Source: Escherichia phage PE37
Sequence record: NC_054929.1
Direction: 5' to 3' (one strand)
DNA: 64,000 bases
Positions 40,141 to 46,967 of the stretch are shown here, in pieces. Under the pieces are notes generated by a model. That model saw only the letters and a list, made by a program, of their open reading frames with translations, was not told where the DNA came from and did no database searches. Made by a program: the position numbers and the translations under genes. Every line of letters starts with the position of its first letter. Position 1 is the first letter of the stretch.

Positions 40141-40474
40141 AATTTTGGTTTTATGTATAGGATTAATTTCATTTTCTGCGTTAGCAAATACATCATATAC
40201 TGAAATTAGAGAGTATGTAAACCGTACTGCCGCGGATTATTGCGGGAAAAATAAAGCATGCCAAGCTGAATTTGCGCAGAAATTAATATATGCATATAAA
40301 GACGGAGAAAGAGATAAATCAAGCAGATACAAAAATGATACATTGTTAAAACGATATGCTAAAAAGTGGAATACCTTAGAATGTTCAGTTGCGGAGGAGA
40401 AAGATAAAGCCGCTTGTCATTCAATGGTTGACCGTTTAGTAGATTCTTATAATCGAGGATTGAGTACTAGATGA
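40133..40474 (+). CDS. secreted small protein
   Basis: Signal peptide MTKILVLCIGLISFSALA, 4 Cys. Confidence 0.5.
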   Translation: MTKILVLCIGLISFSALANTSYTEIREYVNRTAADYCGKNKACQAEFAQKLIYAYKDGERDKSSRYKNDTLLKRYAKKWNTLECSVAEEKDKAACHSMVDRLVDSYNRGLSTR

Positions 40475-40950
40475 TTGTAAAATATATCAAGGGCGATATT
40501 GTCGCCCTATTTCTTCAAGGTAATATTATTGCGCACGGGTGCAATTGTTTTCATACTATGGGTTCAGGTGTAGCGGGTCAATTAGCAAGAGCCTATCCTA
40601 AAATTTTAGAAATAGATAAAACCACTACTGAGTACGGTTCTCGTGATAAATTAGGCGATATGTCTATTGTTTTTAAACATAATCCTACGGGATTTGGTAT
40701 ATGCTATAACCTGTATACGCAATACGAACCGGGTCCTAATCTTGATTATGGTGCTTTAGTAAACTGCATGATAGAATTAAATCTACAGGCAGAAACCCTT
40801 TTGTTTAAACCAGTAATTTACATTCCACGCATAGGTTGTGGTATTGCTGGCGGTGATTGGGATAAGGTTTCTAAATTAATCGACATGTTTACTCCTGATA
40901 TTGATTTAATAGTGGTGGATTATGAAAGTACATTACCCGCATCCGTTTGA
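40471..40950 (+). CDS. macro-domain protein (TARG1/OARD1-like)
   Basis: Motif HGCNCFHTMGSGVAGQ typical of terminal ADP-ribose glycohydrolase macro domains; 159 aa. Confidence 0.7.
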   Translation: MIVKYIKGDIVALFLQGNIIAHGCNCFHTMGSGVAGQLARAYPKILEIDKTTTEYGSRDKLGDMSIVFKHNPTGFGICYNLYTQYEPGPNLDYGALVNCMIELNLQAETLLFKPVIYIPRIGCGIAGGDWDKVSKLIDMFTPDIDLIVVDYESTLPASV

Positions 40951-41134: not shown

Positions 41135-41337
41135 GCCAAACTAGTATTCTTAAAAATGCTCATTGTGAAAAGTGTGAATGGCCAGTTGTTTTTGCTTTAT
41201 GTAATGATGAAATGGCTTGTGATTTCGATTATTGGTGCTATTGTTCCAATAAAGGATGCATCAATCATAAAGGTGAAGGATTTTATTCAGGATTTTATCC
41301 TTATCCTGATTTCGTTAAAGAAGGTAAACCGAAATGA
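41125..41337 (+). CDS. Cys-rich small protein (putative zinc-binding)
   Basis: CEKCEW...CNDEMACDFDYWCYCSNKGC. Confidence 0.45.
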   Translation: MVMSQTSILKNAHCEKCEWPVVFALCNDEMACDFDYWCYCSNKGCINHKGEGFYSGFYPYPDFVKEGKPK

Positions 41338-41503
41338 ATAGTTTTGAGTTACAATATGAAGTGTTACGTGAGCTTGATAATTTAATTGAACTCGCTGCTA
41401 ATAAAGGTTTTGCCATTGGAATCGGTCAAAAAGATACTGACCATTTAACTACGGAAATATTTAAGCAAAAGCGAATTATTTTAAAACTCCTGGAAATTAA
41501 TAT

Positions 41504-41689
41504 ATGAGTCTGAGTAAAGAACAAAAAGATAAATTGTTTGAGCTTATCCATGAACTTCTAGATGAGCATGCAGAAGCAAACACCTTTTATGATGAATACG
41601 GCCCGCTATCTCCCGAACAACAAGAAGAATTTGCTGACCGGTTTGATAAGAAAGAAAACGAATTAATAGCTTATGTGAATACGCTTTAA
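41504..41689 (+). CDS. hypothetical small helical protein
   Basis: 61 aa, MSLSKEQKDKLFELIHEL. Confidence 0.45.
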   Translation: MSLSKEQKDKLFELIHELLDEHAEANTFYDEYGPLSPEQQEEFADRFDKKENELIAYVNTL

Positions 41690-41698
41690 GAAGGTGAT

Positions 41699-42280
41699 AT
41701 GGCGAGTTTAATTTTTACTTATGCAGCAATGAATGCTGGAAAATCTGCTTCTCTTTTGACTGCTGCACATAATTATAAAGAACGTGGAATGAGTGTATTA
41801 GTTCTTAAGCCTGCTATTGATACTCGCGATTCTGTCTGTGAAGTTGTTTCTCGCATTGGAATTAAACAGGAAGCGAATATTATTACAGATGATATGGATA
41901 TTTTCGAGTTCTATAAATGGGCTGAAGCACAAAAAGATATTCATTGTGTATTTGTAGATGAAGCTCAGTTTTTAAAAACTGAACAAGTGCATCAATTGAG
42001 CCGAATTGTTGATACATATAATGTTCCTGTTATGGCTTATGGATTAAGGACTGATTTCGCTGGAAAATTGTTTGAAGGTTCTAAAGAACTTTTAGCGATT
42101 GCAGATAAACTTATTGAACTAAAGGCAGTTTGTCATTGCGGCAAAAAAGCGATTATGACAGCTCGATTAATGGAAGATGGAACACCAGTTAAAGAAGGTA
42201 ATCAAATCTGTATTGGTGATGAAATTTATGTTTCTTTGTGCAGAAAACATTGGAATGAATTAACTAAAAAGCTCGGTTAG
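41699..42280 (+). CDS. tk: thymidine kinase
   Basis: 193 aa, P-loop NAGKSASLL, zinc ribbon CHCGKKA...C. Confidence 0.95.
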   Translation: MASLIFTYAAMNAGKSASLLTAAHNYKERGMSVLVLKPAIDTRDSVCEVVSRIGIKQEANIITDDMDIFEFYKWAEAQKDIHCVFVDEAQFLKTEQVHQLSRIVDTYNVPVMAYGLRTDFAGKLFEGSKELLAIADKLIELKAVCHCGKKAIMTARLMEDGTPVKEGNQICIGDEIYVSLCRKHWNELTKKLG

Positions 42281-42322
42281 TGCAAAAGTTATAAATAGGT
42301 TTATCTAACTAAAGGGGTATAT

Positions 42323-42535
42323 ATGCTACAATTAACTGAAAAGCAACTTCGCAATCTTACTGTTCTTCAATTAGATGAAATTCGTAGGGAAGTTGGAAAT
42401 ATCATTTCAGCTTTGCGTCGAGAAGTATCACTCAACCAATCTCCGGCAGACTATACTAGATTGCGAAATTTTGAAAAATACCTTGATAAAGTTAAGGCCG
42501 TGCATCGGCATAAAGTAAATACAGGACAAAAATGA
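42323..42535 (+). CDS. hypothetical protein
   Basis: 70 aa ORF, RBS AAAGGGG. Confidence 0.45.
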
Positions 42536-42547
42536 TAGGAGGCCTTT

Positions 42548-42841
42548 ATGGCCTTAAAAGCAACGGCACTATTTGCCATGCTAGGATTAGCGTTTGCTTT
42601 ATCTCCACCGATTGAAGCGAATGTCGATCCTCATTTTGATAAATTTATGGAATCTGGCATTAGACATGTTTATATGCTTTTTGAAAATAAAAGCGTAGAA
42701 TCATCTGAACAGTTCTATAGTTTTATGCGAACGACCTATAAAAATGACCCGTGCTCTTCCGATTTTGAATGTATAGAGCGAGGCGCGGAGATGGCACAAT
42801 CATACGCTAGAATTATGAACATTAAATTGGAGACTGAATGA
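42548..42841 (+). CDS. rI: lysis inhibition regulator RI (antiholin)
   Basis: 97 aa, MALKATALFAMLGLAFALSPPIEA signal-anchor; matches T4 RI from memory. Confidence 0.9.
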   Translation: MALKATALFAMLGLAFALSPPIEANVDPHFDKFMESGIRHVYMLFENKSVESSEQFYSFMRTTYKNDPCSSDFECIERGAEMAQSYARIMNIKLETE

Positions 42842-43224
42842 AATTCAGCGACTTTTCACAAAGTGGAAAACCTTCAAAGGCAGATGAATACTTAGGTTTA
42901 TTAATGGCTGCACAAGCTTATTTTCATTCTGCACATTTTGAAACTAAAAGTTATGCTAGACACAAAGCATACGATTTTATTTTCTCCGAGTTGCCAGATT
43001 TGATTGATAAATTTGGTGAGCAATATTTGGGGTATTCTGGTAGAAAATACACACCTTCAATTCCAGATGCCAGTAAACTTCCTACCGACACAATTAAAAT
43101 GATTGATCGCATACTAGACCAATCTAACAGCATTTATAAAGAAATGCCTCCAGCCATCCAAAGCACGATAGATGATATTACTGGAATGTTTTACCAGAGT
43201 AAATATCTTCTTTCCCTCGAATAA
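42838..43224 (+). CDS. hypothetical protein (rI-adjacent)
   Basis: 128 aa, ATGA overlap with rI. Confidence 0.55.
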
Positions 43225-43228
43225 CATT

Positions 43229-43251
43229 AGTCTCCTTCGGGAGACTTTTTT
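43229..43251 (+). terminator. rho-independent terminator (UUCG hairpin)
   Basis: GTCTCCTTCGGGAGAC + TTTTTTC. Confidence 0.7.
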
Positions 43252-43261
43252 CATTTTACCG

Positions 43262-43292
43262 GTTTACTTTCCATTTGAGCTGTGATACTATA
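43262..43292 (+). promoter_or_regulatory. early promoter in repeated block
   Basis: GTTTAC ... gtgaTACTATacaactatc. Confidence 0.55.
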
Positions 43293-43319
43293 CAACTATC
43301 GGATAAAGAGGAGAACATC

Positions 43320-43508
43320 ATGAAAATTGAAGCACTTAATCAAGAAGGAAATATCTACGTCATTATTAATGGTGATTTTTTCGTCGACATGGATGAAGTT
43401 ACTAGTGAAGAACTTGTAGAACTTCTTAAGAAACGTTATAATATGTGTGATGAAGTTGCAACTCACATGGCGTGTGCAATATTCTCTCTTTCATATGTGG
43501 TGGAATAA
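43320..43508 (+). CDS. hypothetical small protein
   Basis: Start at [10 protein letters not shown] after GAGGAGAA RBS. Confidence 0.45.
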
Positions 43509-43711
43509 TGATTAGTATTGAACAAGCAGATAAAATTAAGGAATTAGTGGCTTCAATTCGTAAAGCAGATGAAGAGCTGATTGACTTTGATTGGTATTCA
43601 TCGGGTATTTCTAATAAAGGCATTAAAGACTTTGAAACTAAAGTGGATAATGCTATAGAAGCGTTAGATATGTTTCTTGATGAAATTATCGATCATAATA
43701 CAAGAGTGTAA
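43508..43711 (+). CDS. hypothetical small helical protein
   Basis: [17 protein letters not shown]..., ATGA overlap. Confidence 0.45.
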   Translation: MISIEQADKIKELVASIRKADEELIDFDWYSSGISNKGIKDFETKVDNAIEALDMFLDEIIDHNTRV

Positions 43712-43713
43712 GT

Positions 43714-43908
43714 ATGCTAACACGCGAACAGTTTGAAAAAATCATTAAATTAGCACGTGATATTGAAATAGATTCATATCAATTAGCAGTTGAGCATTGT
43801 GAAGGATATTCATACGACGGTATAGAAGCAGCTAAAAAGGATTTGGATAAATCTAAAGCTAAGCTAGTTCAATATCTTGAAATGATTAGGTGGAATAATG
43901 AAAACTGA
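43714..43908 (+). CDS. hypothetical small helical protein
   Basis: MLTREQFEKIIKLARDI..., 64 aa. Confidence 0.45.
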   Translation: MLTREQFEKIIKLARDIEIDSYQLAVEHCEGYSYDGIEAAKKDLDKSKAKLVQYLEMIRWNNEN

Positions 43909-44071
43909 AAAGCAGATGTTTTTAATGAAACTAATTGAAGAATATGCTAATGCAGTTTCTGACTATGAATGTTCTTCTCGGGAAAGAGGTACAGCTTTCG
44001 CCAAAGAAGAAATGAAAATCATGGTTGATGCTCACACAAAGCTTCAGAATTTTATTGAAAACGTCATTTAA
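43898..44071 (+). CDS. hypothetical small helical protein
   Basis: MKTEKQMFLMKLIEEYAN..., 57 aa, below track cutoff. Confidence 0.4.
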   Translation: MKTEKQMFLMKLIEEYANAVSDYECSSRERGTAFAKEEMKIMVDAHTKLQNFIENVI

Positions 44072-44073
44072 TG

Positions 44074-44106
44074 GTTTACAAGTTGGCAAGGTTATGGTAT
44101 AGTAAT
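44074..44106 (+). promoter_or_regulatory. early promoter
   Basis: GTTTAC ... ggTATAGTAAT. Confidence 0.5.
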
Positions 44107-44235
44107 CTTGTCAACTGCCAAGGAGAAGAGAATGAAAGTTTTGTTTGTTATATATGTGATGATTCAATATAATTACCCAATGTTTACTTATAATTTGGTG
44201 AATAACATTATTGATATTATTCAAAGGAGTATGTA

Positions 44236-44421
44236 ATGACAAGTGAGCAGGCTTTTAAATTAAGAGAATTAATTGAGACGTATAGTAGAGCTGTTCATAC
44301 ATCAACAATTATTGATGAATCAGCTTTCTCCGGACATGCTAACAAGATTAAATACAAAACTCTTATGGAAGAAGCTAAAGTAAATCTTGATTGTTATATT
44401 GAAACTTTAATTGGTAAATAA
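44236..44421 (+). CDS. hypothetical small helical protein
   Basis: MTSEQAFKLRELIETYS..., 61 aa. Confidence 0.45.
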   Translation: MTSEQAFKLRELIETYSRAVHTSTIIDESAFSGHANKIKYKTLMEEAKVNLDCYIETLIGK

Positions 44422-44422
44422 T

Positions 44423-44965
44423 ATGAAAGCTGTAATTGAAACAACTGATTTGTTCGGTAATCTAGTTATCGAAAAACGCGGTAATGTATATGTTCTGACG
44501 CAGGAAGACGATAGTATTATTATTCTTCCTATGGAACTGGCTGCGATTTTATCTTATGCTCCCTCAAGAGTTACCGGTGTAACTAATATTACAGACGACC
44601 TCCAAGTTCGTTTTTATCGTGGCCTTTACGGCGGTAATATTGAAACTGAATTTATGTGTCTTTCTATCAACAATTGGGCAACATTCGTTGCCAAGGTGAA
44701 AGAATTCTTGGAATCTGAAACAGTCGAAACACCCGAAAAGGCTAAACTTCAATGGGCTAAAGATCGCGGTGCTAGCATTATTAATCCAGTAGCTGCAAAT
44801 TATACTACGACTTTGGATGTCAAGACTTCTTATGAAGATGGCGATGTCGTACTTGTTCGCCAAATTGATGATTCTCGAGCACATATTGTCACATTTACCA
44901 AAGATGAAGCTATTGCACTAAAGACTTATCTTGATTCTGTCATTCCAACTATGATTTCAAAGTGA
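44423..44965 (+). CDS. hypothetical protein (paralog pair member 1)
   Basis: Start at MKAVIETTDL; C-terminus EAIALKTYLDSVIPTMISK. Confidence 0.55.
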   Translation: MKAVIETTDLFGNLVIEKRGNVYVLTQEDDSIIILPMELAAILSYAPSRVTGVTNITDDLQVRFYRGLYGGNIETEFMCLSINNWATFVAKVKEFLESETVETPEKAKLQWAKDRGASIINPVAANYTTTLDVKTSYEDGDVVLVRQIDDSRAHIVTFTKDEAIALKTYLDSVIPTMISK

Positions 44966-44971
44966 GGAAAT

Positions 44972-45493
44972 ATGTTTATTTCAAGTGGAAGTGGTTTAAT
45001 TCGTGTTGAATTTAAAAATGACATCTTTCTTATTCAAGGAGATGATATTATTAAAATGAGTTATGACGAAATCAAGAAAATTTGTCATGCTCTTGAAAGT
45101 CATGGAAAAGTGAACGCTGTTATTGATATTGGCGATTTATGGGTGACACTTTATGAAGTATCCGAAGGATTTAACATTGAAGATGAAAATAACATTTTAG
45201 CTATTGATAAAAGAACTGATTTGTTTGATGTATTAAAAGTTTATGAACAGTCAAATGGCGGAAGAAAAGCTGTATTGATTTATCAAAAACCGCATTCATG
45301 TGGAACTGCTTCAATCATTTCAAATATTGAAGGCGAAGTTGATACTTATATGTGTGTTTTAAAAGCTGGTGGTGACCGTCATCCGGATTTTATTTCTATT
45401 CGTCAAAACAATGGAGAAATTTCATTGTCAAAATCAGAAGCTGAAGCTATGATTAAGTATTTAACAACCGTTACGCCTTCAATGAAAGGATAG
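44972..45493 (+). CDS. hypothetical protein (paralog pair member 2)
   Basis: 173 aa; C-terminus EAEAMIKYLTTVTPSMKG resembles upstream neighbour. Confidence 0.55.
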   Translation: MFISSGSGLIRVEFKNDIFLIQGDDIIKMSYDEIKKICHALESHGKVNAVIDIGDLWVTLYEVSEGFNIEDENNILAIDKRTDLFDVLKVYEQSNGGRKAVLIYQKPHSCGTASIISNIEGEVDTYMCVLKAGGDRHPDFISIRQNNGEISLSKSEAEAMIKYLTTVTPSMKG

Positions 45494-45495
45494 TT

Positions 45496-45957
45496 ATGAT
45501 TATTAATGAAAACTCTTGGCACTATAAATTATTCAAATTGTTTAACGATGAATGGCAACGACCTAAGACACTATGTGCATACTTTTGGTCTATTGTTATC
45601 CCTACATTTTTCGTTTCTTTTTTCGGATGCACTATACTCGCAGGTCTAACTATCATCTGTGCAGAAATCATACAGAAATGGCTTATTTTTGGTAGTTTAT
45701 GGACTCTTATTCCATCAGCATTTATACTTGCTATTTTGCTTGTTTTACTTATTATCGGTTCATTTGTTATTCCTGTACATTTGCATGAAAAATATAAAGA
45801 TTATAAATGGAAAAAGGATTATGCTTTACACGTAGAAAATATTGATAGAGCGTATAAAGGTTTACCTCCTATTCAACCCAAGAAATCTATTATCGTCGAA
45901 TTTTTAAAAGCGCGTAAAGCTAAAGTATGTCCTGTTATTGAATATAAGGCTGAATGA
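45496..45957 (+). CDS. membrane protein
   Basis: 153 aa, 2-3 hydrophobic helices. Confidence 0.55.
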   Translation: MIINENSWHYKLFKLFNDEWQRPKTLCAYFWSIVIPTFFVSFFGCTILAGLTIICAEIIQKWLIFGSLWTLIPSAFILAILLVLLIIGSFVIPVHLHEKYKDYKWKKDYALHVENIDRAYKGLPPIQPKKSIIVEFLKARKAKVCPVIEYKAE

Positions 45958-46967
45958 TGAAAACAGTAATGAAAAGTTATTTTGGTAGTCATCTTTATGG
46001 AACTTCTACCCCAGAATCTGATGTAGATTTTAAAGAAATCTTTGTTCCTCCTGCTCGCGATATTCTTATTGGAAATGTCAAAGAGCATATGAGTAAAAAC
46101 ACTAACAACACATCATCTAAAAACACTAAAGATGATATTGACCATGAACTATACAGTCTTAAGTATTTCTTTAAATTAGCAGCAGATGGTGAAACTGTAG
46201 CGTTAGATATGCTTCACACTCCGCCTGAACTAGTGGTTAAATCTGATTTGCCTGATGTATGGAAGTTTATTCAAGACAATCGTTCTCGTTTTTATACGAC
46301 TAACATGAAATCCTACTTAGGATATGTTCGCAAGCAAGCTTCTAAATACGGTGTTAAGGGTTCTCGTTTGGCTGCATTACGTGATGTATTGAAAGTAGTT
46401 AATCAAATCCCCGATCAGTGGGTTGATTACCGAGAAGATGGAACACAAGGACAACGTCGCACTAAAGTTGAAGATATTAAGCATCGTCTTCCAGAAAACG
46501 AATTCTGTGAATGGGTGTTCCATAATCATGAGAAAACAGGTCCACAAACGTTCTACACTGTATTGGGTCGTAAATATCAGACAACGCTTTCTCTTATTGA
46601 GCTTAAGCAGTCTTTGAATAAACTTGATGCTGAATATGGTGAACGCGCTCGTAAGGCTGAAGCCAATGAAGGTATTGACTGGAAAGCTCTGAGCCATGCT
46701 TGTCGTGGTGGACTCCAACTATTGGAAATTTACAAAACTGGCGACTTAGTTTATCCACTCCAAGATGCTCCATTTATTCTCGACGTGAAGCTGGGTAAAC
46801 ATCCATTTAAAACTGTTCAAGAGTTTTTGGAAGATGTGGTCGATCAAGTAGAAGCAGCATCTACTGAAGCTTCTAAGAATGGTATGCCTAAAACAGTAGA
46901 TATGAGCTTTTGGAATAATTTCCTCGAACAGGTTTATCTTGAAAACCACCGAAGTTATTATAAATGA
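45954..46967 (+). CDS. Pol-beta-type nucleotidyltransferase-like protein
   Basis: N-terminal motif FGSHLYGTSTPESDVDF fits the GS-x(9-13)-DxD NTase signature; 337 aa. Confidence 0.6.
   Translation: MMKTVMKSYFGSHLYGTSTPESDVDFKEIFVPPARDILIGNVKEHMSKNTNNTSSKNTKDDIDHELYSLKYFFKLAADGETVALDMLHTPPELVVKSDLPDVWKFIQDNRSRFYTTNMKSYLGYVRKQASKYGVKGSRLAALRDVLKVVNQIPDQWVDYREDGTQGQRRTKVEDIKHRLPENEFCEWVFHNHEKTGPQTFYTVLGRKYQTTLSLIELKQSLNKLDAEYGERARKAEANEGIDWKALSHACRGGLQLLEIYKTGDLVYPLQDAPFILDVKLGKHPFKTVQEFLEDVVDQVEAASTEASKNGMPKTVDMSFWNNFLEQVYLENHRSYYK

Follow-up and report, generated by a model that had tools for sequence, protein, structure and literature searches.

The 64,000-nucleotide stretch of Escherichia phage PE37 analyzed here (NC_054929.1, called the window below) belongs to a Tequatrovirus (T4-like) genome, and it contains five genes of the DUF7438 protein family (PF24219). 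These genes occupy two accessory blocks that are transcribed early, with one copy placed before the thymidine kinase gene (tk) and an array of four located behind the early promoter of mobD.5. The interval 43320-44421, in which the original prediction had seen a run of five consecutive small helical open reading frames (ORFs) with a similar N-terminus, is the mobD.5-mobD.2 accessory region of T4. Bases 41300-45000 show 99.2% identity to Escherichia phage EO1 and 95-99% identity to ~480 other Tequatrovirus records. The genes are ordered as in T4 (tk.4, tk.3, tk.2, tk, rI.1, rI, rI.-1, mobD.5, mobD.4, mobD.3, mobD.2a, mobD.2, mobD.1, nrdC.11), and the synteny with T4 runs from tk.4 to nrdC.11.

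All five ORFs of the interval are present on the + strand, and four of them belong to DUF7438. The first one, the MobD.5 orthologue (43320-43508; 62 amino acids (aa), phrog_3024 at 2e-44), stands outside of the family and has no detectable similarity to its members, being missed both by the Pfam scan and by the two scans of the window with family hidden Markov models (HMMs). The ATG of the next gene, the MobD.4 orthologue (43508-43711; 67 aa, net charge -8, Pfam E-value 5.8e-15), overlaps the MobD.5 stop codon as TAATG; its product is 82% identical to T4 MobD.4, in which the loop is 7 residues shorter. The MobD.3 orthologue (43714-43908; 64 aa, Pfam 1.5e-17) has counterparts in T4, Gaprivervirus TH54, and Dhakavirus QL01, and its end is overlapped by 11 nt by the start of a full-length MobD.2a (43898-44071; 57 aa, Pfam 3.7e-15, phrog_2758). 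The run is interrupted at this point, as a gap (44072-44235) with a promoter-like site and the 34-aa ORF of MobD.2 separates 43898 from 44236. The last gene (44236-44421; 61 aa, near-neutral with a net charge of -1, phrog_4859, Pfam 1.7e-14), referred to here as the 44236 type, starts with an ATG that overlaps the MobD.2 stop, also as TAATG. The separate copy, 41504-41689 on the + strand (61 aa, net charge -10, Pfam 3.2e-19), had been proposed as a relative of the run, and its score of 69.5 bits against the Pfam model bears this out. It is the orthologue of Tk.2, with 54% identity to the T4 protein in a comparison of T4 gene translations and a ratio of nonsynonymous to synonymous substitutions (dN/dS) of 0.19-0.43 in codon alignments with the T4, TH54, and QL01 orthologues. 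An assignment of 41504 to Tk.1 was ruled out by the translated T4 genes, which show Tk.2.

It is nearly certain that the five proteins are diverged paralogues of one family sharing a hairpin fold. The DUF7438 model matches each of them in full length, with 55.8 (43508), 64.1 (43714), 56.5 (43898), 54.3 (44236), and 69.5 bits (41504) at a curated gathering score of 25 bits, and with E-values in the range of 1e-14 to 1e-19 for the four members of the run. As with MobD.5, the Pfam scan gives no DUF7438 match for the neighboring small ORFs 41334 and 42323. In PHROG the five members are placed in phrog_653, phrog_2758, and phrog_4859, with weak cross-matches between the groups. Part of the Pfam evidence is circular, since the model is likely to include these very subfamilies; the homology was therefore tested independently in four ways.

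The raw pairwise identity between the paralogues is 13-32%. In Smith-Waterman comparisons against 500 shuffles, the 44236 protein, which has the strongest pairwise matches of all the paralogues, reaches z values of 7.4 with MobD.4, 5.7 with MobD.2a, and 4.6 with Tk.2; three further pairs lie at 2.6-3.1, and 4 of the 10 pairs do not reach significance. Among 35 control pairs that involve neighboring small ORFs, z averages 0.06 and does not exceed 3.4. All-versus-all BLASTP with composition correction gives weak E-values, the best being 5.7e-4. Profile-profile alignment by hhalign, with orthologue-only profiles built from 119 proteins (two database searches), yields P values of 2.9e-5 (43508-43714), 6.3e-5 (41504-43508), 6.5e-5 (44236-43898), 2.5e-4 (41504-43714), and 3e-3 (44236-43508), while the best of 20 reversed-sequence control profiles has P = 0.045. 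This alignment, suggested beforehand as a check, thus links all five members (P 3e-5 to 3e-3). HMMs from which one subfamily at a time had been left out were scanned over the ORFs of 30 aa or more in the window, 912 in number. The omitted member is recovered with E-values of 6.1e-10 (43508), 2.4e-10 (43714), and, for the other three, 5.1e-5, 5.7e-3, and 2.5e-6, each time ranking straight after the other four members and above the 907 non-family ORFs (their best E-values are 0.15-0.87). Intermediate sequences connect the subfamilies at 30-36% identity, with E-values down to 8e-9. When the 64 kb window is scanned with a richer family HMM, exactly five members are recovered.

The original prediction had allowed for a different origin of the pattern (M-x-T/S-x-E-Q ... 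L), namely convergence from helical or compositional bias in short AT-rich phage ORFs that share no ancestor. The low identity of the paralogues and the four non-significant raw comparisons fit such an origin, and so does, to the detriment of the family, an HMM of Tk.2 orthologues alone, which recovers no paralogue among the window ORFs (best E-value 0.7); single-subfamily HMMs are too narrow to find the paralogues. Against convergence, the leave-one-out profiles put the members far above the 907 other ORFs, including the small ORFs 41334 and rI.1, which had been regarded as helical like the members. The reversed-profile controls are flat, intermediate sequences join the subfamilies, and the members align end to end, have equal length and the same predicted hairpin, and hold syntenic positions in several genera. 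Convergence is effectively refuted by the Pfam, profile-profile, shuffle, and leave-one-out tests, which uphold the proposed small paralogous family, and we attach a negligible probability to it.

The family and its T4 members are already catalogued: DUF7438 comprises T4 Tk.1, Tk.2, MobD.2a, MobD.3, and MobD.4, and PHROGs 653, 2758, and 4859. The PE37 proteins agree with it in the full-length match, the length, the genomic positions, and the phage group, and nothing different in kind was seen; the score, the non-circular homology, the hairpin of 57-67 residues (modeled for two of them), and the tk/mobD loci all place them in the family. The synteny of these loci was compared with T4, KMB40, NBEco003, TH54, and QL01. 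In respect of T4, the PE37 set differs by having the 44236 type and an intact MobD.2a, and by lacking Tk.1. What is added here is a non-circular demonstration that the three PHROGs belong to a single family; the variation of copy number from genus to genus and the corrections to the flagged run are also added.

The members have 57-67 residues, isoelectric points of 4.3-6.1, and net charges of -10, -8, -3, -2, and -1. The N-terminal motif noticed originally is present in 43508, 43714, 43898, 44236, and 41504, with the conserved pattern extending beyond it over the full length. The conserved columns comprise the N-terminal S/T-x-E-Q (with Glu invariant or nearly so), which we interpret as a probable helix N-cap, the invariant Leu14 (helix 1) and Leu54 (helix 2), an aromatic residue near the C-terminus, three positions after the second Leu, and hydrophobic residues at a/d-type spacing. 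AlphaFold2 models, calculated with the family alignment for two of the five members, are plain two-helix hairpins: helices 5-32 and 37-60 in the Tk.2 orthologue (predicted local distance difference test score, pLDDT, 90.6), and helices 3-28 and 34-60 in the 44236 protein (pLDDT 85.4). The surface residues and the loop vary between the paralogues. Among Tk.2 proteins, and likewise among those of MobD.4, the helices show almost no variation and the loop is variable, with insertions and deletions; in MobD.4 the C-terminal tail is conserved. In the case of MobD.3 the loop keeps a CEGYSY core across genera, seen as E(H/L)CEGYSY in 4 aligned orthologues. The subfamily-specific conservation (the MobD.3 loop core, the MobD.4 tail, and the Tk.2/MobD.4 loops) is consistent with distinct binding surfaces.

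A sequence profile search of the Protein Data Bank (PDB) gives nothing below an E-value of 0.047, the top matches being chance helix matches, and the best Foldseek match to the PDB (E 0.26) is uninformative. In BFVD, the fold matches are chiefly uncharacterized 53-60-aa proteins of other T4-like genera (Foldseek E 0.04-0.3). The best of them, hairpins from Escherichia phage LAMP, Enterobacter phage CIP9, Citrobacter phage Merlin, and Klebsiella phage KLPPOU148 (two matches each from CIP9 and Merlin), show template modeling scores (TM-scores) of 0.7-0.8 and 20-28% identity and were not reached by HMMER. Judging from these predicted models, the hairpin family may extend to a wider superfamily beyond HMMER detection.

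Among 1.84 billion cluster representatives, an exhaustive HMMER search detected only 19 proteins with E≤1e-3. One of them, the 786-residue match P0120, is a coiled-coil repeat protein and was discarded as a false positive. Every source that bears a name is either a T-even-type phage or a contig of phage size (~165-173 kb) entered under the name of a bacterium. At 45% identity ~8 real subfamilies are distinguished; the ninth cluster has a single sequence, which is a frameshifted fusion of MobD.3. The copy number varies from 2 to 5 across the four genome types scanned. The PE37 window, KMB40, and NBEco003 have five genes (Tk.2, MobD.4, MobD.3, MobD.2a, and the 44236 type), and T4 has also five (Tk.2, Tk.1, MobD.4, MobD.3, and a frameshifted MobD.2a). 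Four are found in TH54 (Tk.2 and a reordered array of the 44236 type, MobD.4, and MobD.3), and only two in QL01 (Tk.2 and MobD.3). The 44236 type, first in the TH54 array and last in that of PE37, is cleanly missing from T4, where mobD.2 leads straight into mobD.1; 191 phage records carry it, versus 740 with the Tk.2 type. Tk.2 stands directly before tk in the PE37 window, T4, TH54, and QL01, apart from Tk.1, a sixth DUF7438 subtype, which sits between tk.2 and tk in T4 and is not present in the PE37 window.

The T4 reference mobD.2a (NC_000866; 7997-8178 of the compared stretch) carries a 1-bp deletion, and the resulting frameshift leaves 38 aa in comparison with 57 aa of the intact protein. 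The truncation is strain-specific or a sequencing error, since the T4 stock used in HIDEN-SEQ lists mobD.2a at its full length of 174 bp. PE37 Tk.2 is 77% identical to the copy from TH54 (Gaprivervirus) versus 54% to that of T4, a member of the same genus, with the variation mostly in the loop; these sequence comparisons suggest an exchange of Tk.2 alleles across genera.

The orthologue pairs show dN/dS values of 0.11-0.43 at synonymous distances from 0.5 to more than 2, so the DUF7438 genes are protein-coding genes under purifying selection. All that a repeat search at the DNA level found in common between the paralogues is a 13-nt initiation junction, GGTGGAATAATGA, which occurs twice. With no other DNA similarity left, the duplications are old. 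The family originated by old tandem duplication, which was followed by gain and loss of copies between phages. The junction combines a Shine-Dalgarno-like GGTGGA with an ATG and is located at 43499-43511 and 43889-43901, before MobD.4 and MobD.2a, where it is read in different frames by its upstream genes. The form GGAATAATG precedes 3 of the 4 DUF7438 genes in TH54.

In T4, MobD.3 and MobD.4 are made early both as RNA and as protein, Tk.1 and Tk.2 combine early RNA with a middle protein, and MobD.2a has early RNA with no protein detected (PMC9697503 supplement). Transposon sequencing on E. coli K-12 scores all T4 members as 'Non-essential' (bioRxiv 10.1101/2025.11.20.689424 supplement), and CRISPRi-ART with dCas13d knock-down scores them as 'Not Fit' (PMC11879866 supplement). 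The same T4 early block contains proven anti-defence genes, acb2 (vs.4; PMC12657218) and the anti-Septu gene nrdC.1 (HIDEN-SEQ T4 transposon screen).

Tentatively, and with somewhat less than even confidence, we regard the DUF7438 proteins as accessory proteins of early infection that would bind proteins of the host or of its defences; the binding, its targets, and the oligomeric state we infer. The original prediction had described small paralogues of this kind as frequent binders and inhibitors of host factors, a role that would fit the circumstantial evidence. This reading follows from the stable scaffold, the conserved core, the subfamily surfaces, the early expression, the dispensability, the purifying selection, the gain and loss of copies, and the host-directed neighborhood. 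A single, mostly acidic α-helical hairpin with a conserved hydrophobic stripe on each helix would serve as the common scaffold, on which each paralogue would show a different surface, binding and modulating a host protein of its own, which could belong to a defence system or be a physiological target. The proteins would then be early stoichiometric protein-binding modules, conditionally useful rather than essential. For the explanation as a whole, a five-paralogue DUF7438 family acting through such early binding, we consider the chances of being right and wrong to be evenly balanced.

Several results speak against this explanation. According to the HIDEN-SEQ main text, no DUF7438 member is among the anti-defence matches for the systems tested. 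In the toxicity screen of the Mosigvirus AV110, whose 45 proteins may or may not have included DUF7438 members, only 6 were inhibitory. The literature, sequence, and fold searches yielded no partner, no phenotype, and no informative structural match, and a search of the literature on DUF7438 genes did not find a functional study. There is no sequence relative in the PDB and no meaningful match in PADLOC, which models defence proteins only, or in NCBIfam. Net charges from -10 to -1 also argue against a uniform electrostatic mechanism such as DNA mimicry.

The proteins might instead act on the phage's own machinery, as small regulators, chaperones, or adaptors of the y05I/MobD.1 paralogues, Tk, or NrdC, which we find unlikely. 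Such a role could be read from the position of the array immediately upstream of MobD.1 and its paralogue (Pfam T4_y05I_N and T4_y05I_C), from the overlapping stop and start codons that suggest co-translation, and from the constant place of Tk.2 right before tk. The T4 knock-outs and knock-downs have no effect on growth on K-12, contrary to what one would expect if core phage enzymes depended on these proteins, and the copies vary between 2 and 5 while the tk and y05I genes persist, with no evidence for co-variation with any phage gene.

A more elaborate arrangement, somewhat less probable again, would be a modular panel of adaptors or inhibitors, in which the invariant base of the hairpin docks on a common host machine and the subfamily-specific loop or surface captures different targets. 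To form the base, the cap (S/T-x-E-Q) would pack onto the C-terminal segment that is conserved as L-x-x-Y/F-hydrophobic. Two to five rapidly reshuffled cassettes per T-even phage would each neutralize a different defence or pathway, and the discrete loop alleles of Tk.2 and MobD.4, together with the allele exchange across genera, would be traces of an arms race.

Rop (the ColE1 repressor of primer), SSV1 D-63, and cce_0567/DUF683 are α-hairpins of ~60 residues too, with 7-19% identity to the DUF7438 proteins, no Pfam match, and no sequence relationship. It is very improbable that the DUF7438 proteins form Rop-like homodimeric four-helix bundles which regulate early transcripts through binding to RNA or DNA: Rop binds RNA, the DUF7438 proteins are acidic, their negative charge does not suit such binding, and neither a match to the Rop model nor a basic RNA-binding face was found. 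As negligible as that of convergence is the probability that they are functionless filler, whether duplicates in decay or passengers of a region prone to recombination, since the dispensability in the laboratory and the copies frequently lost, frameshifted, or fused in database entries are opposed by the low dN/dS, the orthologues kept across at least three genera, the T4 proteins seen by mass spectrometry, and the conserved translation-initiation regions.

Returning to the early accessory binders, analogues in function are found among AsiA, Dmd, Arn, Acb2/Vs.4, and NrdC.1, characterized early T4 proteins which bind host or defence components or their signals and are non-essential on laboratory hosts unless the matching host system is present. 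These proteins are likewise small and encoded in the same variable blocks, and they share no sequence or fold with DUF7438; the likeness is limited to functional analogy. Even in T4, which has been studied more thoroughly than any other large lytic phage, about half of the genes are without a known function, and most of these are small and early. With several neighbors recently shown to be anti-defence genes, an early five-copy family that is under purifying selection and is gained and lost between close relatives can reasonably be considered a candidate for a part in host range or counter-defence. The redundancy of five copies may explain the silence of single-gene screens.

Two current labels of these genes appear to be annotation errors. 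The 44236 type is named a gp59-type helicase loader in RefSeq and in the label of phrog_4859. The T4 gp59 protein has ~217 residues and is encoded by gene 59, a gene separate from the 44236 type, which has 61 residues and gives at Pfam E≤1 only DUF7438 and one weak unrelated match, and thus neither the N- nor the C-terminal domain of gp59. MobD.4 is named in RefSeq a molybdopterin-guanine dinucleotide biosynthesis protein MobD, and no such domain is found in Pfam or NCBIfam; apparently the T4 locus name mobD.4 ('mobile endonuclease D') was mistaken for that of the bacterial gene. The erroneous labels are propagating in RefSeq records, including NC_000866, NC_055831, and NC_054909. A further error of this kind concerns rI.-1, which is called a 'starvation-inducible transcriptional regulator' and has DUF5856 as its Pfam match.

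The array is preceded on the + strand by a terminator-like hairpin (43229-43246; AGTCTCC-TTCG-GGAGACT and then a T-run), which closes the rI/rI.-1 unit, and by an early-type promoter (43263-43291; TTTACT, 17 nt, TACTAT, with TG before the latter), which drives the mobD.5-mobD.2a unit. The assignment of the promoter hexamers is provisional, with 8 of 12 consensus positions and a score below the listing of the consensus scan. The promoter is nearly identical in T4, is conserved in TH54, and corresponds to the T4 mobD.5 promoter mapped by primer extension (PMC1702504). A GAGGAG Shine-Dalgarno sequence lies upstream of mobD.5, and the terminator, the early promoter, and this Shine-Dalgarno sequence are all kept in T4 and in TH54. 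A control by the RegB nuclease was considered for 43320 and 44236, whose Shine-Dalgarno sequences contain GGAG, and was dropped, as the T4 mobD.5 transcript is not RegB-sensitive (PMC1702504).

A second early-type site, promoter-like by its sequence, is located on the + strand in the gap after MobD.2a (44075-44103; TTTACA, 17 nt, TG-n-TATAGT), and is conserved in T4 except for two substitutions in the spacer. Between this site and the 44236 gene lies MobD.2 (44132-44236, + strand), a 34-aa peptide aligned with T4 mobD.2, which is not a member of DUF7438 and has no Pfam match. Its sequence (MKVLFVIYVMIQYNYPMFTYNLV...) is strongly hydrophobic and conserved with T4, and it may be a small membrane peptide.

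Directly after the Tk.2 orthologue lies tk (41699-42280). The segment 41131-41507 of the window, between tk.3 and tk.2, contains two small ORFs unrelated to DUF7438, one for a Cys-rich 68-aa protein (Pfam Phage_zn_bind, 3e-29) and the other for a 57-aa protein (phrog_3452). Further upstream, the Tk.4 orthologue (40471-40950) has a Macro domain (Pfam 5.8e-8) of the ADP-ribose-binding or -hydrolyzing type; the gene belongs to the early block of the DUF7438 genes and adjoins vs.

Directly downstream of the array, MobD.1 and its 173-aa neighbor form a tandem paralogue pair (44423-44965 and 44972-45493) with 28% identity (E 5e-7), and both contain T4_y05I_N and T4_y05I_C ('putative transcription factor'). 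The HNH homing endonuclease MobD, located in T4 between mobD.1 and nrdC.11, is not in the PE37 window. Its place is filled by the y05I paralogue and a 153-aa ORF (45496-45957), which resembles a membrane protein and whose orthologue in phage QL01 is annotated as 'membrane protein'. At the end of the syntenic segment, nrdC.11 (45954-46967) contains a nucleotidyltransferase domain of the RlaP type (Pfam 3e-11).

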